DNA of 20,723 nt, taken from the UHGV virus genome UHGV-0278151; one strand, written 5' to 3'. This document shows positions 1-20,723 of the stretch, in pieces. The first letter of the stretch is position 1. The number at the start of each line of letters is the position of its first letter. Position numbers and translations under genes: made by a program. The DNA is from a virus. The notes below the pieces were generated by a model. The model did not search any database. It saw only the letters and a program-made list of their open reading frames with translations, and was not told the origin of the DNA.

Positions 1-2
1 CC

Positions 3-137
3 ACGCCGACGGAAACGGATGGCGCTGTTTTTCCGGGACGTATCATGCTGGCCAACACCTGCACCTGGACCTATCGCGGTGACGAGTGCGGTTATAGCGG
101 TCCGGCTGTCGCGGATGAATATGACCAGCCAACGAGC
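3..137 (+). pseudogene. L: Inverted fragment of tail tip gene L (C-terminal half, about residues 154-198)
   Basis: Plus-strand frame from nt 3 reads TPTETDGAVFPGRIMLANTCTWTYRGDECGYSGPAVADEYDQPTS. I recognise this as the Cys-rich C-terminal part of lambda gpL, but it points the opposite way to the L start at 370. Similarity ends near 137. Confidence 0.8.
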
Positions 138-370
138 GTGGGGCGCGTACTGGTGCCTTTGCCATTCAGTTCAAAACCGCTCCCCTGAATGGGATACGGC
201 TGATACTGTCGCCCCTGCCAGGTGACCGGCTCACCTTTTTCGTTCTGCTCATTACAGAAAAAATAACGTTCTCCACCGACCTCTGTCAGGTCGATTTCCC
301 AGAGCACCACGCTGGCCGACTGCTCCGCACGGGTGCATTCATTCAGTGTTTCCTGCCGGATATCCTGCAT
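92..370 (-). pseudogene. L: Truncated minor tail protein L (about the first 79 of 232 codons, then out-of-context tail)
   Basis: The ORF starts MQDIRQETLNECTRAEQSASVVLWEIDLTEVGGERYFFCNEQNEKGEPVTWQGRQYQPYPIQGSGFELNGKGTSTRPTL, which equals the lambda gpL N-terminus. It then reads VGWSYSSATAGPL*, the antisense of the inverted L fragment. Confidence 0.85.
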
Positions 371-699
371 CAGTTCACCACCTGTTCAAACTCTGCGCTG
401 AACTCAACACGCAGCATACTGACCCGCGACGACCATTTTGCGCAGGTCACCTTTATCTGCCGCCACTCATAAGGCGGCGTCCACAGAAAGGATTTCCAGC
501 CCCCGTGCTCTTCCAGAAACGACTCCAGTACCGTGGCCTCCTCACGGGGGACAGAAAGCGTCACGCTGTACGTTTTCAGGTTGGCATTCAGCCCAGCAGG
601 CGCTCGCTGAGAATAGCCATCACCAAAGCGCACCTTTCTTACAGAAGGGACCGAAGCCACATCCATACCGGGTTTCACTTTCCAGCGGAAGGTCTTCAT
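370..699 (-). CDS. M: Minor tail protein M
   Basis: 109 aa, MKTFRWKVKPGMDVASVPSVRKVRFGDGYSQRAPAGLNANLKTY..., matches lambda gpM end to end. It sits between H and L as in lambda. Confidence 0.95.
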   Translation of the reverse strand: MKTFRWKVKPGMDVASVPSVRKVRFGDGYSQRAPAGLNANLKTYSVTLSVPREEATVLESFLEEHGGWKSFLWTPPYEWRQIKVTCAKWSSRVSMLRVEFSAEFEQVVN

Positions 700-3275
700 C
701 GTCCACCTCCGGAGAACAGGCCACCATCACGCATCTGTGTCTGAATTTCATCACGGGCACCCTTGCGGGCCATGTCATACACCGCCTTCAGAGCAGCCGG
801 ACCTATCTGCCCGTTCGTGCCGTCGTTGTTAATCACCACATGGTTATTCTGCTCAAACGTCCCGGACGCCTGCGACCGGCTGTCTGCCATGCTGCCCGGT
901 GTACCGACATAACCGCCGGTGGCATAGCCGCGCATCAGCCGGTAAAGATTCCCCACGCCAATCCGGCTGGTTGCCTCCTTCGTGAAGACAAATTCACCAC
1001 GGTGAACAATCCCCGCTGGCTCATATTTGCCGCCGGTTCCCGTAAATCCTCCGGTTGCAAAATGGAATTTCGCCGCAGCGGCCTGAATGGCTGTACCGCC
1101 TGACGCGGATGCGCCGCCACCAACAGCCCCGCCAATGGCGCTGCCGATACTCCCGACAATCCCCACCATTGCCTGCTTAAGCAGAATTTCTGTCATCATG
1201 GACAGCACGGAACGGGTGAAGCTGCGCCAGTTCTGCTCACTGCCGGTCAGCATCGCCGCCATATTCTGTGCAATACCATCAAAGGTCTGCGTGGCTGCAC
1301 TTTTTACCTGCGACATACTGTCCGTGGCGCTCTCTTCCCACTCACTCCAGCCGGACTTCAGGCCTGCCATCCAGCTCCCGCGAAGCTGGTCTTCAGCCGC
1401 CCAGGTCTTTTTCTGCTCTGACATGACGTTATTCAGCGCCAGCGGATTATCGCCATACTGTTCCTTCAGGCGCTGTTCCGTGGCTTCCCGTTCTGCCTGC
1501 CGGTCAGTCAGCCCCCGGCTTTTCGCATCAATGGCGGCCCGTTTTGCCCGTTGCTGCTGTGCGAATTTATCCGCCTGCTGCGCCAGCGCGTTCAGGCGCT
1601 CCTGATACGTAACCTTGTCGCCAAGTGCAGCCAGCTGGCGTTTGTACTCCAGCGTCTCATCTTTATGCGCCAGCAGGGATTTCTCCTGTGCAGACAGCTG
1701 GCGACGTTGCGCCGCCTCCTCCAGTACCGCGAACTGGCTCTCCGCCTTCCACAAATCCCGGCGCTGCTGGCTGATTTTCTCATTTGCTCCGGCATGCTTC
1801 TCCAGCGTCCGGAGTTCAGCCTGAAGCGTCAGCAGGGCAGCATGAGCACTGTCTTCCTGACGATCGCCCGCAGACACCTTCACGCCGGACTGTTTCGGCT
1901 TTTTCAGCGTCGCTTCATAATCCTTTTTCGCCGCCGCCATCAGCGTGTTGTAATCCGCCTGCAGGATTTTCCCGTCTTTCAGTGCCTTGTTCAGTTCTTC
2001 CTGACGGGCGGTATATTTCTCCAGCGGCGTCTGCAGCCGTTCGTAAGCCTTCTGCGCCTCTTCGGTATATTTCAGCCGTGATGCCTCAGACTCGGCCCAG
2101 TCCTTTGCTGCCATCTCTCTGGCCTTTTCAAGATCGGCCTGCAACGTGGCGGCTGAAAGCCCAAGTTGCGCATTCGCTCTGTCCTCCCATGCTCCCCGGA
2201 GATTGGCAAGAAATGCTGAGGTTTTACCGCGCCGGTGGCTCCGGCTCTGATACCACTGCCATTTTTTGTCCGCCTCATCAAAAGCCTTTTCTGCTTTCTC
2301 CAGCATTCCCTGGGCAGTGTCCGGGCGACCAATATCCAGCACCGAATCCCACATGGATTTGAATGCCCGTGCTGTCCTGTCTGCCCAGGTCTCCAGCGTG
2401 CCCATGTTCTCTTTCAGGCGGCGGGTCTGGTCATCAAACCCTTTCGTTGCGGCCTCGTTCGCCGCCTGCAATGCCCCGGCTTCATCTCCGGAACGCTGCA
2501 ACTGAGCAACATACGCAATCTGCTCCGCCGTCACGTTATGGAACTGACGTGCCATCGCTGTCAGTCCCGACGTCGGGTCTGTGGTCAGCTTCCCGAAGGC
2601 TTCAGCGACCTTGTCCACCTCCACGCCGGATGCAGAGGAGAAACGCGCCACACTCTGGCTGATCGCCTCAAACTGCTCACCACCACGCACACCGGCATTC
2701 ACCAGCGCCGTCAGTGACTCGCTGGTCTGGTTAAACGTCAGCCCTGCCGCCTGCCCGGCTCTGGACAGGACCAGCATACGATCTGCCGTCAGTCCCGCCT
2801 GATTGCCGGAAAGGACCAGCGTTTTGTTGAAATCGGACAGGGTTGAGTTGCCCTGATACCAGGCATACGCCAGCGCACCGGTCGCCACCGCCAGCGAGGT
2901 GGCCCCCACCATCGGCAGGGTGATCGCACCGGCAAGCCCCCTGAACATGGGGATCATCCCGCCGAAGGAGTCCTTAACCTGACCCCCCTGTTGCAGCAGG
3001 ATCAGCCACGGGCTTTGCCCGCCTGCAAGCTGCGTGGCCACGTCGGTGAACTGTGCAGGCAGCATACGCATGGCGGCTTTATACTGCCCGACGGAAATCC
3101 CCGCTTTCTGTGCAGCCAGCGCCTGTCGGCTCAGCGACTGTTCAACGACTGCCGCTGTTTTTTTCGCATCAGTTTCCGTACCGGAAAAATGACGCCTGAC
3201 TCTGGCCATCTGCTCGTCAAATCTGGCCGCATCCAGACTCAAATCAACGACCAGATCGCCTACCGGTTCAGCCAT
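696..3275 (-). CDS. H: Tail tape measure protein H
   Basis: 859 aa (lambda gpH is 853 aa). The N- and C-terminal thirds are nearly identical to lambda H as I recall it (MAEPVGDLVVDLSLDAARFDEQ... ...QTQMRDGGLFSGGGR). The start overlaps the T stop by 8 nt as in lambda. Confidence 0.95.
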   Translation of the reverse strand: MAEPVGDLVVDLSLDAARFDEQMARVRRHFSGTETDAKKTAAVVEQSLSRQALAAQKAGISVGQYKAAMRMLPAQFTDVATQLAGGQSPWLILLQQGGQVKDSFGGMIPMFRGLAGAITLPMVGATSLAVATGALAYAWYQGNSTLSDFNKTLVLSGNQAGLTADRMLVLSRAGQAAGLTFNQTSESLTALVNAGVRGGEQFEAISQSVARFSSASGVEVDKVAEAFGKLTTDPTSGLTAMARQFHNVTAEQIAYVAQLQRSGDEAGALQAANEAATKGFDDQTRRLKENMGTLETWADRTARAFKSMWDSVLDIGRPDTAQGMLEKAEKAFDEADKKWQWYQSRSHRRGKTSAFLANLRGAWEDRANAQLGLSAATLQADLEKAREMAAKDWAESEASRLKYTEEAQKAYERLQTPLEKYTARQEELNKALKDGKILQADYNTLMAAAKKDYEATLKKPKQSGVKVSAGDRQEDSAHAALLTLQAELRTLEKHAGANEKISQQRRDLWKAESQFAVLEEAAQRRQLSAQEKSLLAHKDETLEYKRQLAALGDKVTYQERLNALAQQADKFAQQQRAKRAAIDAKSRGLTDRQAEREATEQRLKEQYGDNPLALNNVMSEQKKTWAAEDQLRGSWMAGLKSGWSEWEESATDSMSQVKSAATQTFDGIAQNMAAMLTGSEQNWRSFTRSVLSMMTEILLKQAMVGIVGSIGSAIGGAVGGGASASGGTAIQAAAAKFHFATGGFTGTGGKYEPAGIVHRGEFVFTKEATSRIGVGNLYRLMRGYATGGYVGTPGSMADSRSQASGTFEQNNHVVINNDGTNGQIGPAALKAVYDMARKGARDEIQTQMRDGGLFSGGGR

Positions 3276-4106
3276 ACCGGACTCCTCCTGCGATCCCTTC
3301 TGATACTGTCATCAGCATTACGTCATCCTCCGTCATGTCCGCCACATCCGGGGAAGCGGGGATAACTTCATTCCCGTCCGGGCCAAAGCGGACACCTCCG
3401 GCAAGCCCTGCCGCTTTCTGCATCAGCACATCATCTTCAGGCTCTTCGTCAGCCTCGCGCCGGTTCAGCAGACTGAAATCCAGCGGATGCATATCCGGAT
3501 CGCTGAAAAACAGGCTGAGCACGGTGTACGTCAGCCCGGAAAAGTGCATATCCAGCAGAACATCATGAAAATAATGGGTACTGTAAAAGCGGTGCCAGTC
3601 GGCATACTCCGTGGATGACATCCCGGCAAGCATGGCACGCCAGTCGGGTCGCCCCATCTCACGCGCCAGTTTCAGGGCAAAACTCAGCTCACCATCGAAC
3701 ACTTTCCCGCAGAAACAGGCTCTGCAGGCCCGGCGTCCTCTGTCTGTTCAGGAGCATCATTCACCACAAACTCATACATACCGGACAGCCGGTACACCAC
3801 GTTTTCAGCATGAGAAATTGCCTCCGTGGGCCAGGTGGTAAGCACTTCCTGCTCAATCTGTTTAACGGCTTCATTCATGGAAGGCAGCTTTGTCTTCTTC
3901 GGATGGTTATGCCACAGGGACATCGCCACCAGAAACGCGCCGGTTCTGATGGCGTCTTCCACAGTAAACTTCCGGTTGCTGTCTGACTCCGCCTGTTCTG
4001 CCTGCCGTTTCATCAGGGCGAGATGCTCAATTCGCTGCAGGGCTGACAGTTCAGAAAGCGTGACGGTCACACCGTTATGTTCAAATGATTCGGTTTTCAG
4101 GAACAT
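3268..4106 (-). CDS. T: Tail assembly chaperone G-T fusion made by programmed -1 frameshift
   Basis: The T-frame ORF 3268..3702 (…FDGELSFALKLAREMGRPDWRAMLAGMSSTEYADWHRFY...) matches lambda gpT. It is entered from the G frame at G GGA AAG. Confidence 0.9.
3684..4106 (-). CDS. G: Tail assembly chaperone G
   Basis: 140 aa, MFLKTESFEHNGVTVTLSELSALQRIEHLALMKRQAEQAE..., matches lambda gpG and ends just after the slippery heptamer. Confidence 0.95.
   Translation of the reverse strand: MFLKTESFEHNGVTVTLSELSALQRIEHLALMKRQAEQAESDSNRKFTVEDAIRTGAFLVAMSLWHNHPKKTKLPSMNEAVKQIEQEVLTTWPTEAISHAENVVYRLSGMYEFVVNDAPEQTEDAGPAEPVSAGKCSMVS
3702..3708 (-). other. G/T -1 frameshift slippery heptamer GGGAAAG
   Basis: Plus strand ctttccc at 3702-3708 is GGGAAAG on the minus strand. 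The G frame reads GCG GGA AAG TGT; the -1 frame reads GGG AAA GTG TTC GAT GGT GAG, the start of the T sequence. Confidence 0.9.
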
Positions 4107-4121
4107 CGCTGACTCCCCGGA

Positions 4122-4862
4122 TTAACTGGCGGTGACGGTGATTTCTGCAACCGCAGCAAGTTCACCATTACCGGATACGACCGGAATGTTGACCTTGCCT
4201 GCAGCAACACCTTTCACGGTGATGGTCATACCACTGACCGACACGGTGGCTTTTGTTTTATCCGCAGACACCGCACGGAAGCTCTTGTCGGTTGCGCCTT
4301 CCGGCTGGAATGCCACGGTCAGCGTGGTGCTCTGCCCTTTCACCACCGAGGTGCTGGCAGGCGTCACAGTCATGCCGGTTGTCGCCGTCACCGTGCTGCG
4401 ATCTTCTGCCATCGACGGACGGCCCACGTTGGTGACTTTCACCGTGCGGGTGATCACTTCCTTCGCCGTCACCGCCTTACCGATACTGCTGACCCAGCCG
4501 CGGAACACATCGACCGTGCCGTTCGGGAAGCGGATTTTATAGGCTCGGGTATCCCCTTCATTAAACCACGCCAGCAGCGCCTGCTGCCCCTGCTCTCCGG
4601 GCATCCACGCCAGCGTGAAGCTGGTATCTCCGGCAGATTTCTGCCCCTGCCCGGTCGCAGTCCAGTCTGCATCTTCATCATCGAGATAGCTGTCGTCATA
4701 GGACTCAGCGGTCAGTTCGCCGGGCGTCAGGTCTTTAACTTTTGCCAGACGCGACCAGTCAACGTCTGAAAGCGGATTCGCATAAGGGTCACCGCTTCCC
4801 TTATAAACCCACAGGGTGGTCCCGGCACCTTTCACCGGCATTACAGGATTTGGTACAGGCAT
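4122..4862 (-). CDS. V: Major tail protein V (with C-terminal Ig-like domain)
   Basis: From the internal Met, [36 protein letters not shown]... (246 aa) matches lambda gpV. GAGGA lies 6 nt upstream of the ATG at 4862. The 10-codon extension in the track overlaps the U stop and is not lambda-like. Confidence 0.95.
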
Positions 4863-4869
4863 AGCGTCC

Positions 4870-5265
4870 TCACATTTCATAGGTAATGACATAAGTCAGA
4901 TCGGCTGAACTCCACAGGCCCGCATCATCGTCGCGCCGGTAGTCATAGCCGCTGGCCACCATACTGGTGATCAAATCTGACAGTGCCGGGATATCACTCA
5001 TCACCGGATAAATCCGGGACTCCATCCACGCATCCAGCTCTGAATCCGGCACCTGAGCAGGCAGGAAAACTTCAATATGCAGCTCCGCCTGCCATGTATC
5101 GCTGTCCAGCTCTTCGCCCGTGTATTCAGCGCCGGTGAGATAAACGGCAACTGCCGGAAAATCCGCCTCATCAAAAACAGCGGGGCGACCATCAAAAAAC
5201 GTCGCCCCGGTGTCATGCTTCTCCAGTGCATCCAGTACGGCTGCACGGAGTTCAGTATGTTTCAT
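4870..5265 (-). CDS. U: Tail terminator protein U
   Basis: 131 aa, [52 protein letters not shown]..., matches lambda gpU. Confidence 0.95.
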
Positions 5266-5840
5266 CGCTTTATTACCATTCTCAGTTGATGCTGCAGCGC
5301 ATAGCCCAGCTCTTTCGGAAGACGTTCACGCCGTATCCGTTCAATATTCTGTTTAAACGCCGTGGTCAGCGGCACCGCCATCGGGATTTTCACCACATCA
5401 ATGGGGTAACGGTTTTTCCCGGCCACACGCTGCATGACATGCCACCGGCCATTTTTCAGTTGCTGAATAAACGCGCCGGGAATACGACGGTTTCCCACCA
5501 CAAGCACGCTGCCGCCACCTTTCAGGGATGAACGCTGCCCCTTTTTACGACGTCTGCGGCGGGAAAGGACAACCCGCGCGTTACCCAGCTTGATTACGGG
5601 CAAATCCCCCCGGTTAACCCTGATTCTGGCCTGCGGATTTTTGACCGTGGCCCTTTTCAGCCTGGCCCTTTCCTTTACCAGTTTCCGGCGTACCTTTGTC
5701 TCACGGGCAACCTGTGACGCAGACTGCGATATCGCGGATGACGCAACGCGGTTAATGGCCATTGCGGCGGCACCAGGCACCGCCGTTTTGCTGATACGGC
5801 TGAGGTTTTCAACGGCCTGCTCAAGACCTTTTATGGCCAT
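5262..5840 (-). CDS. Z: Tail completion protein Z
   Basis: 192 aa, MAIKGLEQAVENLSRISKTAVPGAAAMAINRVASSAISQSASQVARETK..., matches lambda gpZ. Confidence 0.95.
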   Translation of the reverse strand: MAIKGLEQAVENLSRISKTAVPGAAAMAINRVASSAISQSASQVARETKVRRKLVKERARLKRATVKNPQARIRVNRGDLPVIKLGNARVVLSRRRRRKKGQRSSLKGGGSVLVVGNRRIPGAFIQQLKNGRWHVMQRVAGKNRYPIDVVKIPMAVPLTTAFKQNIERIRRERLPKELGYALQHQLRMVIKR

Positions 5841-5851
5841 ACATCCCCCTT

Positions 5852-6205
5852 TCAGCGGCGACGGTTAACGGCAGGCGGCACGCCACGCCCAAGCCAGAGA
5901 TGACAGCTTCCGCCATCATCCGGCGAAATCCGGTCCACCCAGAAGTTTTCCTCGCCGATGGTCAGTGTGTCTCCACGCCGCAGCTGCCGCACATCATCAG
6001 TCCGGACAAACAGGGACGGGCTGGAGCCTTCAACGCGCACCCCCTGTCCGGCATAGCTGATATTTTCAGGGTCATCAAAAACACCACGTATCACAGCACC
6101 GGACAGCTCACCGGATGTCATGGTGGCTGACGTTCCCATGTACCCGCGTATCGTTTCATCGGCGCGGGCAATGGCAGCATCGAACAGGTTATCGGAATCA
6201 GCCAC
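5852..6205 (-). CDS. FII: Head-tail joining protein FII
   Basis: 117 aa, MADSDNLFDAAIARADETIRGYMGTSAT...HLWLGRGVPPAVNRRR, matches lambda gpFII. Confidence 0.95.
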   Translation of the reverse strand: MADSDNLFDAAIARADETIRGYMGTSATMTSGELSGAVIRGVFDDPENISYAGQGVRVEGSSPSLFVRTDDVRQLRRGDTLTIGEENFWVDRISPDDGGSCHLWLGRGVPPAVNRRR

Positions 6206-6216
6206 AGCGCCTCCCG

Positions 6217-6612
6217 TTATTGCATTCTGGCCAGGCCATGTTCTGTCATTTCGGCTGCCACACCGGCAGAGACACGAAACGCCGTTCCCGGCAGCACAAA
6301 TGCCACAGGCTCATCCCGCGTGGCGTGAAGTGCATCAGTATGCAGCGTCACCAGTGCCACGACCGTGACCAGAGCAGCCGCATCAGTCACGGTATCCGGC
6401 TGCGCTGATACCACCTCATTTTCATGTCCGGTCAGCGCATTTTCCGGGCTGACAGATGTGTCCTGACCGGCAGCGTCATCCGTGTCATCAAGCTCCTCTT
6501 CCAGCTCTGCCACACGGAGCACCAGTTCTTCTTTCGTCCCCATCAGGCTGACATCACGGTTCAGTTGCTCACCCAGCACCTGAAGACGGGCAATCAGTTC
6601 ATCTTTCGTCAT
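6217..6612 (-). CDS. FI: DNA packaging accessory protein FI
   Basis: From the internal Met, MTKDELIARLQVLGEQLNRDVSL... ...AEMTEHGLARMQ (131 aa) matches lambda gpFI. GGAGGAG lies upstream of the ATG at 6612. Confidence 0.9.
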   Translation of the reverse strand: MTKDELIARLQVLGEQLNRDVSLMGTKEELVLRVAELEEELDDTDDAAGQDTSVSPENALTGHENEVVSAQPDTVTDAAALVTVVALVTLHTDALHATRDEPVAFVLPGTAFRVSAGVAAEMTEHGLARMQ

Positions 6613-6653
6613 GGACTCCTCCACAGAGAGAAAATGGCCCCGAAGGGCCATGA

Positions 6654-7679
6654 TTACGCCAGTTGTACGGACACGAACGCATCAGGATCAGCCAGCAGCA
6701 TCAGCGGTGCTGACTGAATCATGGTGAACTCACGCGCCGGATCGCCGGTGGTCACCCAGTTTTTCGGGTAGCGGGCAGAGGCGTTAATACCTTCGCGCTG
6801 TGCGTCCGCATCCTGAATGCAGCCATAGGTGCGCAGACCGCGTGCCTGAGTGTTCCCCAGCACCATCGTGTTGTCCGGCAGGAAGTTCTTTTTGACGTCG
6901 TTTTCCACGTACTGTCCGGAATACACGACGATCGCCGTATCGCCATACATCCCCTTATAGGACACCGCTTCGCCCAGGTCTTTTACCGCTGTCTCCAGCT
7001 CGGAATGAGAGCCGCGACGGGTATCCAGCTTCTCCTTGACGGCTTTGAAGGAACGGAACAGCGCCCAGCCTTTCGGATCAAACACGATGATATTCACCAC
7101 GCCGCTGGCGTTCAGCGCATAGGCTTCGATATCGTCGGTCGGGTCATACGTGGACTTGTCACGCTTGCTCCACTCCGTACCACCGGACTGTGTGATGTTG
7201 TTCGCCGCACTGCGGCCCATATCCACCTCAACCGGATCGAAGGCTTCACCGGTCATGGTGTATTTGCCCTTAAGCACAGCAGAAACTGCCTGCATCTCTT
7301 CGACCTGAGCAATGGCCAGCTCTTCGTCTCGCATGTTCTGCATGATGATGCGACGGCGGCGGTAAGCCGGGTCCGCCAGATTCTGCGGATCTTCATCCGG
7401 CAGGCGACGCAGGGTCATCTGCGGATTCACCTCATGCTTGGGTTTGACATATCCCGGCGTAAATTCAGAGGTGGAGCCGCCACGGGAACGGATAACCTCA
7501 CCGGAAACAATCGGCGAAACGTACAGCGCCATGTTTACCAGTCCCGGAATTTGTGAGAGATAGACTTTCTCCGTGGTGAAGGGATAGCTCTCACGGAAAA
7601 AGAGACGCAGAAACAGCGGATCAAACTTAAATTTCTGCTCATTTGCCGCCAGCAGCTGGGCGGTTGTGTACATCGACAT
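6654..7679 (-). CDS. E: Major capsid protein E
   Basis: From Met10 of the ORF, MSMYTTAQLLAANEQKFKFDPLFLRLFFRESYPFTTEKVYLSQIPGLVNMALYVSPIVSGE... (341 aa) matches lambda gpE. Confidence 0.95.
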   Translation of the reverse strand: MSMYTTAQLLAANEQKFKFDPLFLRLFFRESYPFTTEKVYLSQIPGLVNMALYVSPIVSGEVIRSRGGSTSEFTPGYVKPKHEVNPQMTLRRLPDEDPQNLADPAYRRRRIIMQNMRDEELAIAQVEEMQAVSAVLKGKYTMTGEAFDPVEVDMGRSAANNITQSGGTEWSKRDKSTYDPTDDIEAYALNASGVVNIIVFDPKGWALFRSFKAVKEKLDTRRGSHSELETAVKDLGEAVSYKGMYGDTAIVVYSGQYVENDVKKNFLPDNTMVLGNTQARGLRTYGCIQDADAQREGINASARYPKNWVTTGDPAREFTMIQSAPLMLLADPDAFVSVQLA

Positions 7680-7734
7680 AAAAAAATCCCGTAAAAAAAG
7701 CCGCACAGGCGGCCTTTAGTGATGAAGGGTAAGG

Positions 7735-8067
7735 TTAAACGATGCTGATTGCCGTTCCGGCAAACGCGGTCCGTTTTTTCGTCTCGTCGCTGGCAGCCTC
7801 CGGCCAGAGCACATCCTCATAACGGAACGTGCCGGACTTGTAGAACGTCAGCGTGGTGCTGGTCTGGTCAGCATCAACCGCAAGAATGCCAACGGCAGTA
7901 CCGTCGGTGGTGCCATCCCACGCAACCAGCTTACGGGTGGAGGTGTCCAGCATCAGCGGGGTCATTGCAGGCGCTTTCGCACTCAATCCGCCGGGCGCGG
8001 TTGCCGTATGTGCCGGGTCACTGTTGCCCAGCGGCTGGTAATGGGTAAAGGTTTCTTTGCTCGTCAT
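7735..8067 (-). CDS. D: Head decoration protein D
   Basis: [43 protein letters not shown]... (110 aa) matches lambda gpD. Confidence 0.95.
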
Positions 8068-8076
8068 AAACATCCC

Positions 8077-8682
8077 TTACACTGGTGTGTTCAGCAAATC
8101 GTTAACGGCATCAGATGCCGGGTTACCTGCAGCCAGTGGTGCCGGTGCCCCCTGCATCAGACGATCCAGCGCAGTGTCACTGCGCGCCTGTGCACTCTGT
8201 GGTGCAGCTGCCAGAATGCGGCGGGCCGTTTCCACGGTCATACCGGGGGTTTCGGCCAGCACACGTGCCTGTTCTTCGCGTCCGTGAGCTTCCTCACAGT
8301 TGAGGATCCCCATAATGCGGCTGTTTTCTGCCGCAACCGCAGCGGTGATCTGCGCGTTCACGTCCGGCTGCGCCGCGCTGGCGTTTTCGCCCTCCGTCGC
8401 TTGCACCACGTCAGTAACGTCAGCCTGCGAAGCAGTGGCTGAAACAGTTGTTGATTGAGTCTCTTTGGTCATTCGCCCTCCTGAGAGACGGGATTTACGT
8501 GCATCCAGTGCATCACGCATAACGGTGATCGCATCGGTGCTGTTGACAAGTTCATCAGCCAGTCCGGCATCAATGGCCTCCTGACCGCTGTACACTGCAG
8601 CCTCGGTATCCAGCACAGCCTGCACGGACAGGCCGGTATATGCCGACACCTTCTGCGCAAACATCCGGCGGGTTGCATCCAT
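8077..8682 (-). CDS. Nu3: Scaffolding protein Nu3 (in-frame internal start within C)
   Basis: The internal ATG at 8682 gives MDATRRMFAQKVSAYTGLSVQAVLDTEAAVYSGQEAIDAG... (201 aa). This is the same nested arrangement and length as lambda Nu3. Confidence 0.8.
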   Translation of the reverse strand: MDATRRMFAQKVSAYTGLSVQAVLDTEAAVYSGQEAIDAGLADELVNSTDAITVMRDALDARKSRLSGGRMTKETQSTTVSATASQADVTDVVQATEGENASAAQPDVNAQITAAVAAENSRIMGILNCEEAHGREEQARVLAETPGMTVETARRILAAAPQSAQARSDTALDRLMQGAPAPLAAGNPASDAVNDLLNTPV

Positions 8683-9376
8683 CCGGGACTGCAGTGTCTC
8701 CCGGACATCACCCGGTAGATGGCTGTAGGGGTTGCCATCCACCTTATGGCTGCCGCTGTAAATCAGCGTGATTTCCACGCCCTGTTTCTCCAGCGCAGCG
8801 CCGTAATTACTGTGAGCCATCATGACGCCGATGGAGCCTGTCCGGGCGGTCTGCGTGACCAGACGCCGGGAGGCGGCGCTGGCAAGCAGCTGACCTGCAC
8901 TGCAGTTCATGTCGTTGGCCAGCGCCCATACCGGCTTTATGTCACGCACACGGGCGATGATGTCAGCACAGTCAAATGCTCCCGCCACCATCCCGCCCGG
9001 TGTGTCCATATCGAGCAGAATGCCGTCCACCATCGGATCGCTGGCAGCCTGTTGCAGACGGGCGATAATGCCGTTGTAACCGGTCATTCCCGAATACGGC
9101 TGCAGCGCCCGCGTCCGGCTGACCAGCGTACCGGACACCGGCAGCACGGCGATGCCGTTCATGACCTGATAACTGCGGGCCTGTCGTGGTCCGTCATCAT
9201 CACCGGATAACGCCAGCGCCGCGGGTGCCTCTCCGGCAGTCAGGCTGTCGCCGGATACTGCATCCGTCAGGCGACTGATCCCAAGCTGGCCTGCAAGCGC
9301 ACAAAAGAAAACCCGCGCATAGGCGGGTTCAAGCATCAGCGGCTCATTAAAAGCCATGCTGGCAATATGCGGGAGA

Positions 9377-9396
<20 letters not shown>
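8077..9396 (-). CDS. C: Head maturation protease / scaffold C (ClpP/SppA-like S49 protease)
   Basis: (V)TAELRNLPHIASMAFNEPLMLEPAYARVFFCALAGQLGIS... matches lambda gpC (439 aa). The start codon here is GTG at 9396, overlapping the end of B by 20 nt at the lambda position. Confidence 0.9.
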
Positions 9397-13077
<3,681 letters not shown>

Positions 13078-13103
<26 letters not shown>

Positions 13104-13623
13104 TCAGCAACCCCGGTATCAGTTCATCCAGCGCGGCTGCTTTGTTCATGGCTTTGATGATATCCCGTTTCAGGAAATCAATATGCCGGTTATCCAGCTC
13201 AGGAAAACGTCGCTGCACCGACAGAGGAATACCGTCGAGAATACTGGCAATTTCACCTGCGATCCGCGACAGCACGAAAGTACAGAATGCGGTTTCCACC
13301 ACTTCAGCGGAGTCTCTGGCATTTTTCAGCTCCTGGGCGTCAGCCTGCGCACGTGTAAGTCGATGGCGTTCGTACTCAATAGTCCCAGGCTGGAGATCTG
13401 CCTCGCTGGCCGCCCTGTAATCCTCAACCTCTTTACGGAGTTTTTCATTTTCGATATCAGCTTCCCTCTGCGCATACCACTGAATTGCCATGGCGGTATC
13501 AAATACAGATTCAACGCCCTTACCACCTCCGGAGACGCAAGGGAGTCCCTGAGACTGCCAGCGTTCAATCGTTCGCGGATCCACGTTGAAAATTTCGGCA
13601 AGTTTCTTTTTATTAACCTTCAT
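13078..13623 (-). CDS. Nu1: Terminase small subunit Nu1, chimeric (non-lambda N-terminal DNA-binding domain, lambda C-terminal part)
   Basis: [93 protein letters not shown]... (181 aa). The first 78 or so residues are only loosely lambda-like and recall phage 21 gp1. From ASEADLQPG onward it is essentially lambda Nu1. Confidence 0.9.
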
Positions 13624-13648
13624 GAAACAGTCACACAACAAATACAGA

Positions 13649-13760
13649 GTCCGACATGAAAGTGTCCGAAAATGACTTTTTCAGGCGTTTTCATGTCGGA
13701 CCTTTTACGGATTCGATATTAGAAAAAACAAATAGTTATGTTCGAGAAGTACCGACATGA
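13649..13760 (-). promoter_or_regulatory. cosB-like region: three CATGTCGG(A/T)C repeats, presumed small-terminase binding sites
   Basis: Plus strand has gtCCGACATGAa at 13649-13660, tTCATGTCGGacc at 13690-13702 (inverted) and gtaCCGACATGAt at 13749-13760. They lie between cosN and the Nu1 start, where lambda has R3-I1-R2-R1. The motif differs from the lambda CGTTTCC-type R sites. Confidence 0.7.
13726..13738 (+). promoter_or_regulatory. Possible IHF site (I1 analogue) between cosB repeats
   Basis: AAACAAATAGTTA follows an A-tract. It has one mismatch to WATCAANNNNTTR and sits between the outer and middle repeats, like lambda I1. Confidence 0.35.
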
Positions 13761-13799
13761 TTTTCCCCGGAAAATTTTCATAAATAGCGAAAACCCGCG

Positions 13800-13811
13800 C
13801 GCCTGCCGCCC
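13800..13811 (-). other. cosN cohesive-end 12-mer candidate (GGGCGGCAGGCG on the minus strand)
   Basis: The minus strand reads ACG GGGCGGCAGGCG CGCGGGTTTTCGCTATTTATGAAAATTTTCCGG. Both flanks are identical to the lambda left end as I remember it (ACG GGGCGGCGACCT CGCGGGTTTTCGCTATTTATGAAAATTTTCCGG). The 12-mer differs at 4 of its last 5 positions. Confidence 0.7.
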
Positions 13812-14164
13812 CGTGGAAGGCCTCCCCACCGGAAGGACCCACACAAATGAGAGCGTTTATCATTAACATTTGCAGATAAGATGACGTACATCATTGAAAC
13901 GCCATTCAGCCATATACCGGCAGCATTCGTAGTTGCACTCCGTAACTCTGCGACTAAGGTTAAAAACATGGCCCTCTTTTGCCACCGGCAAATCTTCAAT
14001 GGATTTCCCCTGCCGGTTTTTTATTTTCGTCGATGCATAACATTGCATTTACATCAATAGCGGCTATTGTCATTAGTATGTTGCATCAATGCATGGGTGG
14101 TATTGGCGGTCTTCGCCGGCCGCTTCTGTGTAGCTGCTCCCTGTGACCGGTTTTTTATTTCTCA

Positions 14165-14203
14165 CATTACAGCAACCCCTTAGAGTGAAGGGCTGCTGTA
14201 ATG
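14165..14203. other. Long imperfect hairpin (10 bp + 5 bp stem, 6-nt loop) with no adjacent U-tract
   Basis: cattacagca-ac-ccctt agagtg aaggg-c-tgctgtaatg. Neither strand has a T-run immediately 3' of it, so it is not a canonical intrinsic terminator. Confidence 0.6.
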
Positions 14204-14228
14204 CCTGTTACTCAGTAACTACCGCACC

Positions 14229-14537
14229 TTACGGTAATTTCATGAAGGCAAATACCGGACAGCCCGGATGACGAGCATCTTCTGTTGCTTCCAGCATTGA
14301 CTCACCAAACCACTCCGTCGTGGCGCGACCGTCAGCTGCTTTGTAGTGGATCAAGTACTGGTTTTCGCCATCCGCATACTGCGCACGGGCTTTAACCTCA
14401 CCCCATTCATCACTGATGCGCATCTCCACCAGTTGAGACAACTCAAACTTAAACGGAGCAGCATCAGCACCAATTACAATCGGTTTGTTTTCTGTTTTTC
14501 CATCATCGTCTCCTGATATCGAAGCCCGTCGCCGCAC
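14229..14537 (-). CDS. Hypothetical protein, start unresolved (probable frameshift relative to its own SD and ATG)
   Basis: The open frame ...KTENKPIVIGADAAPFKFELSQLVEMRISDEWGEVKARAQYADGENQYLIHYKAADGRATTEWFGESMLEATEDARHPGCPVFAFMKLP has no family I recognise. The only strong SD (AGGAGA, 14509-14514) serves ATG ATG at 14506-14501, which is in a different frame and stops after 10 codons. Confidence 0.5.
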   Translation of the reverse strand: MRRRASISGDDDGKTENKPIVIGADAAPFKFELSQLVEMRISDEWGEVKARAQYADGENQYLIHYKAADGRATTEWFGESMLEATEDARHPGCPVFAFMKLP

Positions 14538-14677
14538 CGGGCACTGATCAACATTTGAGTATTCGCGGCGACAGAAAGAATTTATTTTATTGAATAGCCA
14601 CTAACACAGAATTTCATGCTTTCCGGACGCTGGCGCGCCCTTCATTTTTCAGCAAAATATTCCGCTATTACAGATGA

Positions 14678-14860
14678 TCAGTTCTGCAGACACTGCCGAA
14701 CGCCATCGATAAGCTGGCAGACCTGAGAAGCCGTATCGAAAAGCTGGCGCGCCTTATCCAGGCTGACGCATCCCACCAATAAAAAAGGCACCAGTATCGC
14801 TACCAGTGCCCATTTCGCCGCCGTTCGCGGCATTCTGTGTGTCCAGTGTTTTCTGCTCAT
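14678..14860 (-). CDS. Small lipoprotein at the end of the lysis cassette (60 aa; spanin-slot protein of unknown type)
   Basis: MSRKHWTHRMPRTAAKWALVAILVPFLLVGCVSLDKARQLFDTASQVCQLIDGVRQCLQN. It has a basic N-region, a hydrophobic core and a lipobox L-V-G-C. AGGTG lies 5 nt upstream of the ATG at 14860. The mature peptide is about 29 aa with 3 Cys. Confidence 0.7.
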   Translation of the reverse strand: MSRKHWTHRMPRTAAKWALVAILVPFLLVGCVSLDKARQLFDTASQVCQLIDGVRQCLQN

Positions 14861-14874
14861 AACACACCTGGTTA

Positions 14875-15255
14875 TCAGCGTTTCAACTGAAAGTGAGGCC
14901 CGTCTTTCAGTGTTTTCCAGTCCCCACCCCATTCGATGGCAGTTCCCAGCTCTGCGGCAGCCTGCTTAAATGCCTGCGCGATTTTCTCGTACAGAGGCCA
15001 GTCCCATGACACCTGGCTGCCAATGTAGGCCACAACATCCACCGCATCACCTGTAAGGTGGCGGCTGTTCATGGTCTGGCTTTTCCCTGCCGCTACCAGC
15101 TGTTTCTGGCGATACTTACTGCGCAGACCTTCCGTGATACCAAAATCAACCTCCGTCAGCTCCAGCGCACGGCGAACGACAGCAACCAGCTGTGGTTTGA
15201 CGCCCTCCAGATTTTTTTCACTGCGACGGCTGAATCTGAATTTACCCGGCATCAT
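14875..15255 (-). CDS. Endolysin, peptidase M15 family (VanY / L-alanyl-D-glutamate peptidase-like)
   Basis: MMPGKFRFSRRSEKNLEGVKPQLVAVVRRALELTEVDFGITEGLRSKYRQKQLV...SRHLTGDAVDV...DGPHFQL carries the H-x6-D and C-terminal H zinc-ligand pattern of M15 peptidases. GAGG lies 5 nt upstream of the ATG at 15255, and the gene follows the holin genes. Confidence 0.8.
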   Translation of the reverse strand: MMPGKFRFSRRSEKNLEGVKPQLVAVVRRALELTEVDFGITEGLRSKYRQKQLVAAGKSQTMNSRHLTGDAVDVVAYIGSQVSWDWPLYEKIAQAFKQAAAELGTAIEWGGDWKTLKDGPHFQLKR

Positions 15256-15257
15256 AT

Positions 15258-15533
15258 TCACCTCAACAATGGAAAGATTTTTGTGACGTTCCCGCGTGCG
15301 CGTATCACCAGCACGCAGAACAGCAGGTTAAAAAACACTTCCAGCCAGCCCGTTGCTAACGGGCGACCACACAGATAGCTGAGGGGCGCAAAGGCATACA
15401 GCAGCATCAGCAGCCAGGCCAGCCATGACATCAGCGGTTTGTGTCTGGAGTCACGACGACGATAAAAAAAGAGCGTCAGCACGATAACCGTGCATAACGC
15501 CACATTCAGTAATCCGGGAAGGTTACTTAACAT
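15258..15533 (-). CDS. Holin-like small membrane protein (about 3 TM, 91 aa)
   Basis: MLSNLPGLLNVALCTVIVLTLFFYRRRDSRHKPLMSWLAWLLMLLYAFAPLSYLCGRPLATGWLEVFFNLLFCVLVIRARGNVTKIFPLLR has three hydrophobic segments and a charged C-terminus. A GGAGGAGG SD is present, and the gene is translationally coupled to its neighbours directly upstream of the endolysin. Confidence 0.7.
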   Translation of the reverse strand: MLSNLPGLLNVALCTVIVLTLFFYRRRDSRHKPLMSWLAWLLMLLYAFAPLSYLCGRPLATGWLEVFFNLLFCVLVIRARGNVTKIFPLLR

Positions 15534-15915
15534 TGCCGCCTCCTCCGCCCCGCAGGCGCGAGAACAGGCCGGACACCAGTGATGCGATATCCTGCTGGTG
15601 GATGAACGACAGAATCTTCACCGACACCACCGCCACCAGCACCGCACACAGTGCATCCGCAGATGTACCGTCATAACCTGTTTTTGATGCAATCCAGGCT
15701 GACAGTACACGCGCCCCCAGTACACCAACAATGAACGACACCAGAAAATGTGCCGCCACACGCCAGGCTGAAATCTTCTGCGGCATCGTTGCCACAAACA
15801 ACGCCCCGGCGAACGCACCAAACACAATCCCGAAATCCGTTCCGGTAAACAGCCCGAATACCGTCGCCCCGCCGAGCGCCGCAGCCGTGCCGGAACCGGA
15901 TAAGGGTTCAGACAT
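15523..15915 (-). CDS. Holin/antiholin-like membrane protein (130 aa, Gly/Ala-rich TM segments)
   Basis: MSEPLSGSGTAAALGGATVFGLFTGTDFGIVFGAFAGALFVATMPQKISAWRVAAHFLVSFIVGVLGARVLSAWIASKTGY... AGGAGA lies 6 nt upstream of the ATG at 15915. It is the first gene of the lysis cassette and resembles LydA-type holins in composition. Confidence 0.65.
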   Translation of the reverse strand: MSEPLSGSGTAAALGGATVFGLFTGTDFGIVFGAFAGALFVATMPQKISAWRVAAHFLVSFIVGVLGARVLSAWIASKTGYDGTSADALCAVLVAVVSVKILSFIHQQDIASLVSGLFSRLRGGGGGNVK

Positions 15916-15930
15916 ACTTTTTCTCCTGTA

Positions 15931-15955
15931 AATAAAAAAGGGCCACCAACGGCCC
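15931..15955 (-). terminator. Rho-independent terminator between the TerB module and the holin
   Basis: The minus strand reads GGGCC gttggt GGCCC TTTTTTATTT, and a second hairpin (AAAGGCA-8nt-TGCCTTT, 15972-15993) lies just upstream. Confidence 0.8.
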
Positions 15956-16002
15956 ATAAAAACACCCCATCAAAGGCACCCGCAGATGCCTTTTGTGTGG
16001 TG

Positions 16003-16155
16003 TTATTCAGATTTACGCAGTAAAGGCCGGAGCACGACCAGCGCCATCGCCACCAGCACACCATCTGCCAGCACCGACATCAGCCGTCCGGTGAAATCCA
16101 CCACCACTACCAGAAACAGCAGGATGGCAGCCAGCACAAGGCGCGCACTTTTCAC
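16003..16155 (-). CDS. Small two-TM membrane protein (50 aa) translationally coupled to the TerB-like gene
   Basis: It is not in the ORF track (under 60 aa). The GTG at 16155 overlaps the TerB-like stop (CTGTGA), with GGAG 8 nt upstream. The product is VKSARLVLAAILLFLVVVVDFTGRLMSVLADGVLVAMALVVLRPLLRKSE*, with two clear hydrophobic helices and a basic tail. Confidence 0.55.
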   Translation of the reverse strand: MKSARLVLAAILLFLVVVVDFTGRLMSVLADGVLVAMALVVLRPLLRKSE

Positions 16156-16577
16156 AGGTACTGCTCCAGCGGCAACTGCAACGCCTGTGCAATTTTCTTG
16201 AGCTGCACTTCTTCATCAGGACCGATGCCGTCCTGGTCAGCAATATCCAGACACAGACACAGCACGTTAACTGCATCATCAGTACCGGCAACATCAGCCA
16301 GCTGACGAAGGGCTTCGGCATTGGCAGAACGCGGTGACGCTTCATAACGGGCGCGGATATTTGCACTCATTTGTGCAATCTCACCCGAGAACGGCGCAAA
16401 GGCAGGAAGTGCTGCAATGGTTTTCTCCAGCACAGCGATTTCTTTCGCATCACAGGTGCCGTCGGCGAATGCTATGGAATACGCACCCCAGACGGTCGCC
16501 TCCACTGCATCGCGGTTCTCCATCTTCTTCACTTCGGTAATGGCCTTGCGGGTTTTCTTTTTGAAAATACCAAACAT
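16152..16577 (-). CDS. TerB-like (tellurite-resistance TerB fold) protein
   Basis: 141 aa, MFGIFKKKTRKAITEV...GAYSIAFADGTCDAKEIAVLEKTI...LCLCLDIADQDGIGPDEEVQLKKIAQALQLPLEQYL. It has the two A-x-ADG-x-x-D/E-x-x-E repeats and the N-terminal MSFF/MFGIF-K motif of TerB. An AAGGA SD precedes the ATG at 16577. Confidence 0.7.
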   Translation of the reverse strand: MFGIFKKKTRKAITEVKKMENRDAVEATVWGAYSIAFADGTCDAKEIAVLEKTIAALPAFAPFSGEIAQMSANIRARYEASPRSANAEALRQLADVAGTDDAVNVLCLCLDIADQDGIGPDEEVQLKKIAQALQLPLEQYL

Positions 16578-16596
16578 CGTGACTTTTCCTTTTAGT

Positions 16597-16681
16597 GGGT
16601 GAGCCTGCGCCCGGGGGTGACCAGCCCACAGAGAAAGTCACACTGACCATCCCGTAAGCTCACCCCTGAAAGGCTCTGTGG
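16597..16681 (-). promoter_or_regulatory. Structured 5' leader of the TerB-like gene (two interleaved 8-bp GC-rich helices)
   Basis: Helix A pairs 16626-16633 (ccacagag) with 16674-16681 (ctctgtgg). Helix B pairs 16597-16604 (gggtgagc) with 16658-16665 (gctcaccc). The arms interleave (B-left, A-left, B-right, A-right), so they form either a pseudoknot or mutually exclusive folds. They end about 10 nt from the SD. Confidence 0.5.
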
Positions 16682-16788
16682 TTTTTGATGTGCGCCGGGC
16701 GTGGCGCAAAGAAATGAAATAAGACTTACCTGAAATTAAGGTTAATCTGAGGATTTAAACCATTTTTAAAGCTTAGTAATATCAACTC

Positions 16789-16867
16789 GTCTCCTGAAGG
16801 AGACAGATACTTATGATTCTTCATGGACTTTGTCCCGCGGCGTTAATCCGACGGCCGCGCTTTTTTT
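16789..16867 (+). ncRNA. Candidate plus-strand small RNA (about 80 nt) antisense to the late-operon direction
   Basis: TTTAAA (16754-16759), a 17-nt spacer and TAATAT (16777-16782) form a promoter-like signal. The predicted transcript has a 5' hairpin GTCTCC-tgaa-GGAGAC (16789-16804) and a terminator CGCGGC-12nt-GCCGCG-C-TTTTTTT (16836-16867). Confidence 0.45.
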
Positions 16868-16902
16868 GCGCCATATTCATCGCTAACTTACATGGCATTG
16901 CC

Positions 16903-16937
16903 ACACGGGCATTATCAGTGTCCGTGTTTCTTTTTTT
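16903..16937 (+). terminator. Second plus-strand intrinsic terminator
   Basis: ACACGG-13nt-CCGTGT followed by TTCTTTTTTT. Confidence 0.6.
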
Positions 16938-16949
16938 AGGATTCAGAAT

Positions 16950-16974
16950 AAAAAAAACCGCCCGGTGGAGGCGG
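16950..16974 (-). terminator. Minus-strand intrinsic terminator downstream of the tRNA-like gene
   Basis: The minus strand reads CCGCC-tccaccg-GGCGG followed by TTTTTTTT. It is convergent with the two plus-strand terminators. Confidence 0.75.
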
Positions 16975-17242
16975 TAAAGGATGTATTTCCAGGTTTTGCT
17001 TAATATATGAATAATCTCAATGTCATGGTGTTATTTACAACACCAGAATGATGCATCACCGACCCTGCCAGGAAATATAAAATCTCCGCCGAAAATGCAC
17101 CATTCTGCTGCCGTAAAAAAATCAGCACTGCGGCTACACCCGACCCCAAATCATAGCCAGAGAACAGAATGTTTTTAACAATCTACCCCCACGTAATAAA
17201 AAAATACGTCAGTGCCGTCACTATAAGGCGTATTTCAAATGT

Positions 17243-17318
<76 letters not shown>

Positions 17319-17446
17319 TTTTATTGCCACATCCGTAACAACAGTCGACAGGAATAATATACATTCAGAATCAGCCGCCTTAGCTAATTGTGCAACCATC
17401 TGCTCTTTGCAAGTGCACTTAACGTCCTGCGCCACTTTTCAGGCAT

Positions 17447-17469
17447 AAAAAAACCCGCTCAGTGGCGGG
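17447..17469 (-). terminator. Intrinsic terminator (copy A of a 25-bp repeated terminator)
   Basis: The minus strand reads CCCGC-cactga-GCGGG-TTTTTTT. A second 8-bp hairpin (AAGGCACC-attaa-GGTGCCTT, 17490-17510) lies just upstream on the same transcript. Confidence 0.75.
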
Positions 17470-17482
17470 ATCTTTTGATAAA

Positions 17483-17594
17483 AACGACAAAGGCACCATT
17501 AAGGTGCCTTTTACACAGGGGCAGCAGGCTTGTCATCACCTCATCGCTACTCCTGGCTTCCTGTTCGGAAGTCTCACAAGTCCCATCAGGGTAC
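17483..17594 (-). ncRNA. Candidate small RNA (about 85-145 nt) from the TTGACA/GATACT promoter to the tandem terminators
   Basis: The predicted start is near 17594. The transcript has an internal hairpin CTTCC-gaaca-GGAAG, then the 17510-17490 hairpin with a U-rich tail, then the 17469-17447 terminator. There is no convincing ORF, only ATG AGG TGA and a 25-codon frame with a poor SD. Confidence 0.4.
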
Positions 17595-17600
17595 AGCGAC

Positions 17601-17629
17601 AGTATCAGCCAACACACTATGTGTGTCAA
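17601..17629 (-). promoter_or_regulatory. Strong sigma70-type promoter TTGACA-17-GATACT
   Basis: The minus strand reads TATA TTGACA cacatagtgtgttggct GATACT gtcgctg. The hexamers are those of lambda pL. The spacer contains the inverted repeat ACACAC-tat-GTGTGT. A perfect palindrome ATCGAATTCGAT (17641-17652) and a 10-bp hairpin lie upstream. Confidence 0.6.
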
Positions 17630-17664
17630 TATAAATTCATATCGAATTCGATAATCGTTTTCGA

Positions 17665-18066
17665 TTATCGATACAGATAAGCCATCCCTATCCCGTGCAA
17701 TACCGCCCGTTTAATATTCTCAAACTCATCTTCCGCAATCATAGGAACAATATAATTTCGTCCCTCCCAGGTTCTGGTTTTTATGCGATCCAGTCGGCTC
17801 AATGAAACCGTCATCAACATGTCACATTTTACCCAGCAAGTAATATGCTCATTACCAGGTATGGGGTTTTCTGATAACTCATGATGGCAATCTCTGCGAG
17901 GGAGCGGTTCAGTAGTGCTTATTGGTACCACTGTTACCAATTGATTGTTGTGCCTGTTTCTGGACACGACCACCACTGGCCTGACCTTGACTATTTCCGG
18001 AACAACCATTCCCCGAAAATCACACATTAAAACAGAACGAACAGACGGCTGATACTTTAATACCAT
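17665..18066 (-). CDS. PemK/MazF-fold toxin-like protein (YifN-like), with no adjacent antitoxin gene
   Basis: 133 aa from the ATG at 18066: MVLKYQPSVRSVLMCDFRGMVVPEIVKVRPVVVVSRNRHNNQLVTVVPISTTEPLPRRDCHHEL...WVKCDMLMTVSLSRLDRIK. This is the MazF/PemK signature (G/S-x-L-x-x-DF ... E-x-x-K-x-RP-x-VV-S ... V-x-VVP-x-ST ... D-x-x-x-TV). The SD is weak (AAGAGA). Confidence 0.7.
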   Translation of the reverse strand: MVLKYQPSVRSVLMCDFRGMVVPEIVKVRPVVVVSRNRHNNQLVTVVPISTTEPLPRRDCHHELSENPIPGNEHITCWVKCDMLMTVSLSRLDRIKTRTWEGRNYIVPMIAEDEFENIKRAVLHGIGMAYLYR

Positions 18067-18170
18067 AAATCTCTTTGCCTGATAATGACGACTTGTGAAC
18101 TCCACTACAAACAAAATGATTCTGCTGAACAGGCAGTTTCGCACTATACATTATAACCTGTTAAGCCAAC

Positions 18171-18193
18171 AAAAAAACCCGCTCGGCGGCGGG
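18171..18193 (-). terminator. Intrinsic terminator (copy B); candidate tR' about 50-70 nt downstream of the candidate late promoter
   Basis: The minus strand reads CCCGC-cgccga-GCGGG-TTTTTTT. It matches copy A at 17447-17469 in 23 of 25 positions, and the two differences lie in the loop. Confidence 0.75.
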
Positions 18194-18247
18194 ATTTGCT
18201 TACTTTGCCATCGAGTACAAAATCGGCAAAATATCAGATTTGCACGA

Positions 18248-18276
18248 AATATATGCCTTTTAATCTACTTTTGCAA
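18248..18276 (-). promoter_or_regulatory. Candidate late promoter pR' overlapping the 3' end of the Q-like gene
   Basis: The minus strand has TTGCAA (18276-18271), a 17-nt spacer and TATATT (18253-18248). The predicted +1 is the A at 18241. The initial transcribed region contains cTGaTATTTT, a -10-like element of the kind that causes sigma70-dependent pausing at lambdoid pR' promoters. Confidence 0.5.
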
Positions 18277-18949
18277 CACTTTGCTTTGAAAATGCCGTCT
18301 TTTGTTCTGAACGTGTTCTCATCACAAACAATAAAGCCTCACTATCCAGCCGGTGGAAAATGTGTTTCATTGCAACCCAGTGACCAGTAAATGTTTTGGA
18401 CCAGTTTTTTGTTGTTACTCCCGCCAGTAATGCCAGTTCCTGATATTCATAAGTTTCACGCCCAGCTAGCTCACTCTTCACATCCTGTGCCGCCAGCCAG
18501 ATTAATTTTTTCAGGCGCTCCCGTGTTTTCTCCGCAATTTTTCTGGTACCAGATTGCGCGTTAAATTCATTCCACGCCCACTGTGTTATCGCAATCTGGT
18601 GTTCCCAGCAAATGCTGCCGCTGTAACACCACAGCAACCAGGCTTTATAGTGTTCTTCAAGAGACAGAACCGCCCGTCGCCATGATGATGTCGAAAACTC
18701 AACCTGACTTACCAGAGGAATTGACGTCCTCTTTGCCAGCGATTGTTTCCCCGGGATTGGTGGATTATCCCGCGTTATCATTTTTCCGGTCACTTCATCG
18801 CGGTACCGGATTTTTTTACGCCTGTAACGCCCTGTATCAAACATGGCATTCTCCTGCCAGGCTTCAAGCTGACCTTTTGTTGCCCCACTCAAATCGGCGG
18901 TGGCAATAATGAGCTGCTCACGAACAAACTGTAAATACTGGTTATTCAT
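18260..18949 (-). CDS. Late-gene antiterminator Q, QuuQ-like long form (229 aa)
   Basis: It sits directly after rusA with an ATGA stop/start overlap at 18946-18949, and GGAG lies 5 nt upstream. A promoter and terminator follow it. The size and the DUF968-Q adjacency match Qin ydfU-quuQ. The sequence is MNNQYLQFVREQLIIATADLSGATKGQLEAWQENAMFD...EEHYKAWLLWCYSGS... The family assignment is from memory and position only. Confidence 0.55.
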   Translation of the reverse strand: MNNQYLQFVREQLIIATADLSGATKGQLEAWQENAMFDTGRYRRKKIRYRDEVTGKMITRDNPPIPGKQSLAKRTSIPLVSQVEFSTSSWRRAVLSLEEHYKAWLLWCYSGSICWEHQIAITQWAWNEFNAQSGTRKIAEKTRERLKKLIWLAAQDVKSELAGRETYEYQELALLAGVTTKNWSKTFTGHWVAMKHIFHRLDSEALLFVMRTRSEQKTAFSKQSVAKVD

Positions 18950-19305: not shown

Positions 19306-19317
19306 CAGTAACCTCTT

Positions 19318-20364: not shown

Positions 20365-20365
20365 G

Positions 20366-20723
20366 TTACCTCCAGATGCGTTGCTGGAATGTACGGGACG
20401 GACGCGGTGGGCGTTCGGAGTAAGGCAATCTGACTGAGATTATCCAGTGACGGTAGTCGAGACTAAGGGCTTTCTTAACCTCGTATCCGGAGCTTAAGTT
20501 GCACGCCATTGGGTGGGTTAAGCATAAATGTAGGTCGTTGTCGATAACTTCTTTTTTTGCCCAGCGATGGATGCTGCCGTCAATGTTTCCGGCATCCACA
20601 TCACCAGGCCAGAGAGCGTAGGCCAGTTCGTCATCCAGTGTTTTCCATGTCTGCTTGTATTCGCGATGAATGGCAGCAATGACCGGGCTGATTTTTCCTG
20701 TTGAATTTTCAGTGTACTGTTGA
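20366..20723 (-). CDS. Hypothetical nin-region protein, C-terminal part (gene continues beyond the window)
   Basis: The minus-strand frame is open from the window edge: QQYTENSTGKISPVIAAIHREYKQTWKTLDDELAYALWPGDVDAGNIDGSIHRWAKKEVIDNDLHL...RTFQQRIWR*. The stop lies 1 nt before the DUF968 start. The ATG in the track at 20599 is internal. I do not recognise the family. Confidence 0.5.
   Translation of the reverse strand, partial: QQYTENSTGKISPVIAAIHREYKQTWKTLDDELAYALWPGDVDAGNIDGSIHRWAKKEVIDNDLHLCLTHPMACNLSSGYEVKKALSLDYRHWIISVRLPYSERPPRPSRTFQQRIWR

Follow-up and report, generated by a model that had tools for sequence, protein, structure and literature searches.

Tail gene L at the left end of the window (the whole stretch of DNA analysed here, 20,723 nucleotides) is joined head-to-head with a segment of its own distal half in inverted orientation. 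We attribute this junction, with a probability of about 0.75, to a technical artefact arising at the tip of an assembled contig and not to a rearrangement in the cell. It is present in the window sequence, but most likely it is not a feature of the organism. An earlier note on this DNA, made from the letters alone, had described the head-to-head arrangement, which was confirmed by alignment to phage lambda and by matches to PF05100. It had offered three origins, of which two were inversions (one small and intragenic, one larger and illegitimate) and the third a misassembly. The third is favoured here, because a matching blunt, inward-pointing flip is present at the other end of the window, and neither flip was found in any other searched sequence.

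The prophage late region and the join in tail gene L

The window is the late region of a lambdoid prophage, encoded on the minus strand, and not lambda itself. The genes follow in the order DUF968, RusA, Q, a TerB-like gene, two holin-family genes, an M15 peptidase gene, cos and Nu1, and then A, W, B, C, D, E, FI, FII, Z, U, V, G, T, H, M and the start of L. The late-region genes other than L are intact and have the sizes seen in relatives. The closest relative found was an ENA contig (L013), which is 99.75% identical over window positions 1178-20489. Lambda spike-in DNA was considered as the source and rejected, since the identity to lambda is only ~97% over most of the structural (head/tail) region and the sequence differs beyond cos; over the end of H, M and L the identity is 99.6-100%.

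Several further observations were made in this region. Beyond cos, the late regulatory and lysis region (13812-18260) is unlike that of lambda and holds a PF06323-type Q, the TerB-like gene, the two holin-family genes (PF16931, PF05449) and the M15 peptidase gene, with the peptidase and holin-family genes standing where lambda has S/R/Rz. In the tape-measure gene H, whose product is 859 aa long, a patch of ~210 nt (2088-2300) gave no BLAST alignment to lambda, while its flanks are 97-99.6% identical to lambda; it looks like a mosaic patch. No tRNA genes were found in the window by ARAGORN.

The features at the left end of the window are as follows.

1..134, plus strand: flipped L fragment, gpL codons 154-197, in frame from position 3
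134..135: junction J1, where lambda 14019 abuts the reverse complement of lambda 13664; blunt
135..370, minus strand: L from its start codon (368-370) through codon 78, with 2 nt of codon 79; the 5' part of the gene
92..370, minus strand: chimeric 92-aa ORF from the ORF list, gpL 1-79 followed by 13 unrelated residues; created by J1
370..699, minus strand: tail gene M, intact, 109 aa; ORF sizes match the called genes in relatives

The anatomy of the join was established by BLAST against lambda (NC_001416), in which L occupies 13429-14127. Window positions 1-134 are identical to lambda 13886-14019 on the plus strand (134/134); the plus-strand segment is thus homologous to distal L. Positions 135-800 correspond to the reverse complement of lambda 13664-12999, with 665 of 666 positions identical. 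The minus strand had been read as gpL residues 1 to about 79, in agreement with the codons aligned here. The plus strand had been read as residues of about 154-198, and this holds for codons 154-197; S198 is coincidental, as the window has AGC at 135-137 and lambda has TCC.

The junction had been placed at about 133-138, and its location is borne out, with the exact point at 134|135. The microhomology suggested around agcg at 135-138 does not exist in the DNA and is a coincidence at the protein level only. Comparison of the flanking bases gave zero shared bases at 134|135, and neither reference can be extended by a single base: lambda has T after 14019, where the window has A, and C is expected before the other piece, where the window has G. 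The joined points lie 355 nt apart, and 221 nt are missing between the two pieces of L. In normal L genes the flipped fragment is found 222-355 nt past the break, on the other strand. Codons 79-153 and 198-232 of L are absent from the window.

Both pieces belong to the family PF05100 (Phage_tail_L) and align to profile positions 1-52 and 126-171 of 206. The score was 81.5 bits for the 92-aa ORF and 65.5 bits for the plus-strand fragment, both above the curated family cut-off of 25. Lambda gpL covers profile positions 1-206 in one gene, and relatives carry one gene of 232 codons, whereas the window has two partial pieces on opposite strands instead of a single frame of ~232 aa. At the DNA level both pieces are 100% identical to the lambda allele, which is consistent with their origin from one intact copy of L, and M, H and the tail/head operon stand upstream in lambda order. 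An exact-protein look-up of the 92-aa chimeric ORF returned no recorded gene product, and the same was true of the partial ORFs at the two window ends and of the DUF968 protein.

Two candidate mechanisms for the join were rejected. A microhomology-mediated inversion at the 4-nt inverted repeat GACG/CGTC predicts CACGCT-GACG-TTGG, and hand comparison showed CACGCT-CG-TTGG in the window. An in vitro flip at restriction sites was set aside because, read by eye, no site is common to both breakpoints. The join also shares with the Gin/Cin/Pin invertase switches an inverted segment in the tail gene region of a phage. In contrast to those systems, the window has neither inverted crossover sites nor an internal repeat (self-BLAST), there is no invertase gene nearby, and the breakpoints fall inside a conserved essential gene and give a product out of register. 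The inverted repeats expected at the ends of a segment turned by a site-specific invertase are likewise lacking, as the breakpoints share no sequence.

The exonuclease gene at the right end

A second blunt inverted join, J2b, was found inside the large prophage exonuclease gene at the right end of the window and is the counterpart of J1. The features of this end are as follows.

20483..20489: junction J2a, with a 7-nt microhomology GTATCCG, from the region upstream of DUF968 to exonuclease codon ~163
20483..20532, plus strand: exonuclease stretch in natural orientation, 50 nt, a 100% match to locus L023 6365-6316
20532..20533: junction J2b, where the exonuclease gene is joined to an inverted piece of itself; blunt
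20533..20723, plus strand: flipped exonuclease piece, 191 nt, also matching L023 6001-6191

Window positions 19325-20532 are co-linear with the corresponding locus (L024) of the complete genome TST3 up to L024 position 20113. The last 191 nt of the window (20533-20723) are identical to the reverse complement of L024 20238-20428 (191/191), that is, to a piece which in TST3 sits 125-315 nt beyond window position 20532, on the other strand. The stretch 20483-20532 derives from the same gene as these 191 nt, on the opposite strand and 125-174 nt away. The points joined at J2b (L024 20113 and 20428) are 315 nt apart, 124 nt are missing between them, and the flanking-base comparison gave 0 shared bases, as at J1.

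Only a short distance inside J2b lies J2a, which is a real deletion junction. It is of the deletion type, with the immunity and replication region removed, and the three complete genomes C1, TST3 and TBE6 carry it with 100% identity over 113 nt. In complete E. coli genomes it belongs to a Qin-like prophage remnant. J2a can therefore serve as a control within the window: it has microhomology and is present in other genomes, and both flips have neither. The exonuclease locus itself is uninterrupted, without the J2b flip, in three complete genomes.

A change of allele was observed nearby, in the DUF968 gene. At 20078-20148 the sequence switches from 100% identity with the L013-type allele to 100% identity with the Qin-like TST3 allele, and the switch falls within a 71-nt stretch common to both alleles. 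Among complete genomes the best match to the switch region was 99.1%. Recombination in nature could have produced this switch, or a contig may have passed from one prophage copy to another.

Occurrence of the junctions in other sequences

The occurrence of J1 was assessed with a 121-nt probe by BLAST against 5426 complete E. coli genomes. Matches were obtained in 3743 L-bearing genomes, and the junction was crossed in none of them (0/3743), with no place covering at least 80% of the probe. None of 92 phage records spanned the junction, nor was J1 found when contig collections (genome, viral and metagenome) were scanned for the exact pattern. For J2b, the result was 0 of the 3907 complete genomes matching its probe.

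In contrast to the window, L was in normal order in all related loci examined (77/77, or 57 + 20). The 57 K-bearing loci were drawn from species-representative genomes, and order was judged where both L pieces aligned; the pieces were co-oriented within the gene and 221 nt apart in those checked. No relevant masked stretch was seen beside K in these loci. All ten contigs encoding an identical H protein have an L of 232 aa (10/10), and all relatives returned by protein look-ups with H, terminase and RusA have normal architecture. The L region matched a median of 4 places per genome and the exonuclease end a median of 2.

The searches also returned loci of another kind. Low-coverage contigs with a lambda-type K are present in reference assemblies of Neobacillus, Shewanella, Pseudomonas, Pseudoxanthomonas, Bradyrhizobium, Kitasatospora and others (L035-L046, L053, L055, L060, L061, L065, L070-L072, L086, L088-L090). 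K in these contigs is 98-100% identical to the lambda-type query, the L piece, where reached, is 100% lambda, and some of the contigs measure ~48.4-48.5 kb, close to the length of the lambda genome. Their presence in unrelated bacteria is very likely due to contamination with lambda control DNA. One further locus, from a Bacteroidaceae MAG (L091), opens with a run of N of 1225 nt (1-1225), which is unrelated to the window and may be masked sequence in the collection.

Origin and meaning of the flipped ends

The two flips lie in unrelated genes, 134 and 191 nt from the window ends, and have the same form: each is blunt, drawn from ahead and pointing back toward the body of the sequence. For an arbitrary slice of DNA, it would be an extreme coincidence that both ends fell just outside two real junctions, and we infer that the window ends are contig ends set by the two joins. 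Breaks of a contig at both of these places are expected, because both genes are multi-copy and short-read contigs break in repeats.

Based on the above, we suggest the following course of events. The true contig body would be 135-20532, an ordinary late region running from DUF968-RusA-Q via lysis, cos, head and tail to L. At each tip, a short piece from a few hundred nt ahead would have been attached in flipped orientation, with loss of the intervening 221 nt at the left tip and 124 nt at the right. This geometry would be that of an Illumina read pair, in which read 1 points outward and read 2, from the far end of the fragment, points back. Subtracting the read length from the insert size gives the spacing between the 3' end of read 1 and the 5' start of read 2, which for common libraries is a few hundred nt. 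The joined distances of 355 and 315 nt are similar to each other and lie in this range, which favours an artefact. Three technical routes may be considered. Mates may have been concatenated; chimeric fold-back reads may have extended the contig tip where a repeat blocked the true path; or a tiny terminal contig may have been placed flipped and the gap closed. All three would give blunt joins located at contig ends and private to one assembly, and the joins in the window have these properties together with the inward direction, the offset in the insert range and the occurrence at both ends. No description of an assembler artefact of precisely this kind came up in a literature search.

Some considerations point the other way. 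De Bruijn graph assemblers need k-mers that span a junction, so some reads must carry the joins. In other public assemblies, ~20 lambda-contaminant contigs were without flipped ends, which shows that such an artefact does not arise in every assembly. A real rearrangement leading into repeated sequence would likewise end a contig soon after the junction. Taken together, real rearrangements of any kind nevertheless appear unlikely, and it is improbable that the window holds either a 20.4-kb fold-back block or two blunt intragenic inversions inactivating L and the exonuclease gene.

The second of these forms, in which a real 355-bp inversion within L (lambda 13665-14019, codons 79-197) was accompanied by an independent 315-bp inversion in the exonuclease gene, is an improbable explanation in its own right. 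The 134 visible nucleotides match the expected first part of the inverted segment, the same lambda allele is present in both L pieces, and any other copies of L in the genome would break the contig soon after the junction. Such an inversion would place a second L junction 221 nt to the left of the window and would leave the gene inactivated and the prophage tail-less. However, two independent and very rare blunt inversions of similar size would be required, each just inside a window end, and the breakpoints have neither inverted repeats nor microhomology. J1 was found in none of the collections searched, and exact-match scans for the second junction in metagenome and viral contigs, which are only weakly informative, gave no hit.

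There is only a slim chance that the block 135-20532 (20.4 kb) is bounded by asymmetric fold-back junctions, in the manner of a tandem inverted duplication or palindromic amplification produced by template switching in replication and collapsed by the assembler into one contig. Under this reading, the number of inverted junctions (exactly two), their position at either end of the block and their common inward turn would all be accounted for. Descriptions of fold-back junctions usually place them at short inverted repeats or at microhomology, whereas both junctions here are blunt, and no collection contained a second example.

A chimera formed during amplification in library preparation, by polymerase template switching as in multiple displacement amplification (MDA), is very improbable. 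Inverted joins of neighbouring segments make up 85% of the chimeras in MDA (PMC1855051), and the orientation and proximity of the joins in the window, 355 and 315 nt against the <10 kb of that class, agree with this. However, among MDA inverted joins with partners less than 10 kb apart, 93.5% show a junction complementarity of 2 nt or more (PMC1855051), and here it is 0 nt at both junctions. In addition, MDA joins are about equally upstream and downstream, while both flips in the window point inward at similar distances. Fold-back or inverted-repeat chimeric reads from sonication or enzymatic preparation also usually show complementarity or inverted repeats (PMC10908179). The joins in the window thus resemble chimeras of library preparation or read handling in that nearby segments are joined inverted, at contig tips and in one data set only, but they differ from the published MDA, sonication and enzymatic types in being blunt. 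Concatenated mates, or end pieces placed in the wrong orientation, would account better for this bluntness.

An illegitimate join between two oppositely oriented lambdoid prophages, with the 134-nt piece being the L of the other prophage, is scarcely credible, even though E. coli genomes commonly have several copies of L (median 4 places) and the window changes prophage allele elsewhere (20078-20148): the piece and the 5' part of L share one lambda-type allele, and no explanation is given for the flip at the right end, where the piece and its neighbour are 100% identical to one continuous TST3 locus. For homologous recombination between two prophages, the earlier note had argued that it would not yield the present arrangement, and we consider this argument right.

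The earlier note had also concluded that the prophage is without a working L and unable to make tails, and this would follow only if J1 is real. In that case, an otherwise intact lambdoid prophage would have lost tail assembly through an unusual blunt inversion in E. coli. If the reading of J1 as an artefact of the contig end is right, the actual L gene of the prophage is probably intact. Short flipped scraps at contig ends can mimic gene-disrupting inversions, with the result that prophages are wrongly called defective or genes wrongly called pseudogenes, and a search for the same pattern at both ends of a contig offers a cheap check for such artefacts.
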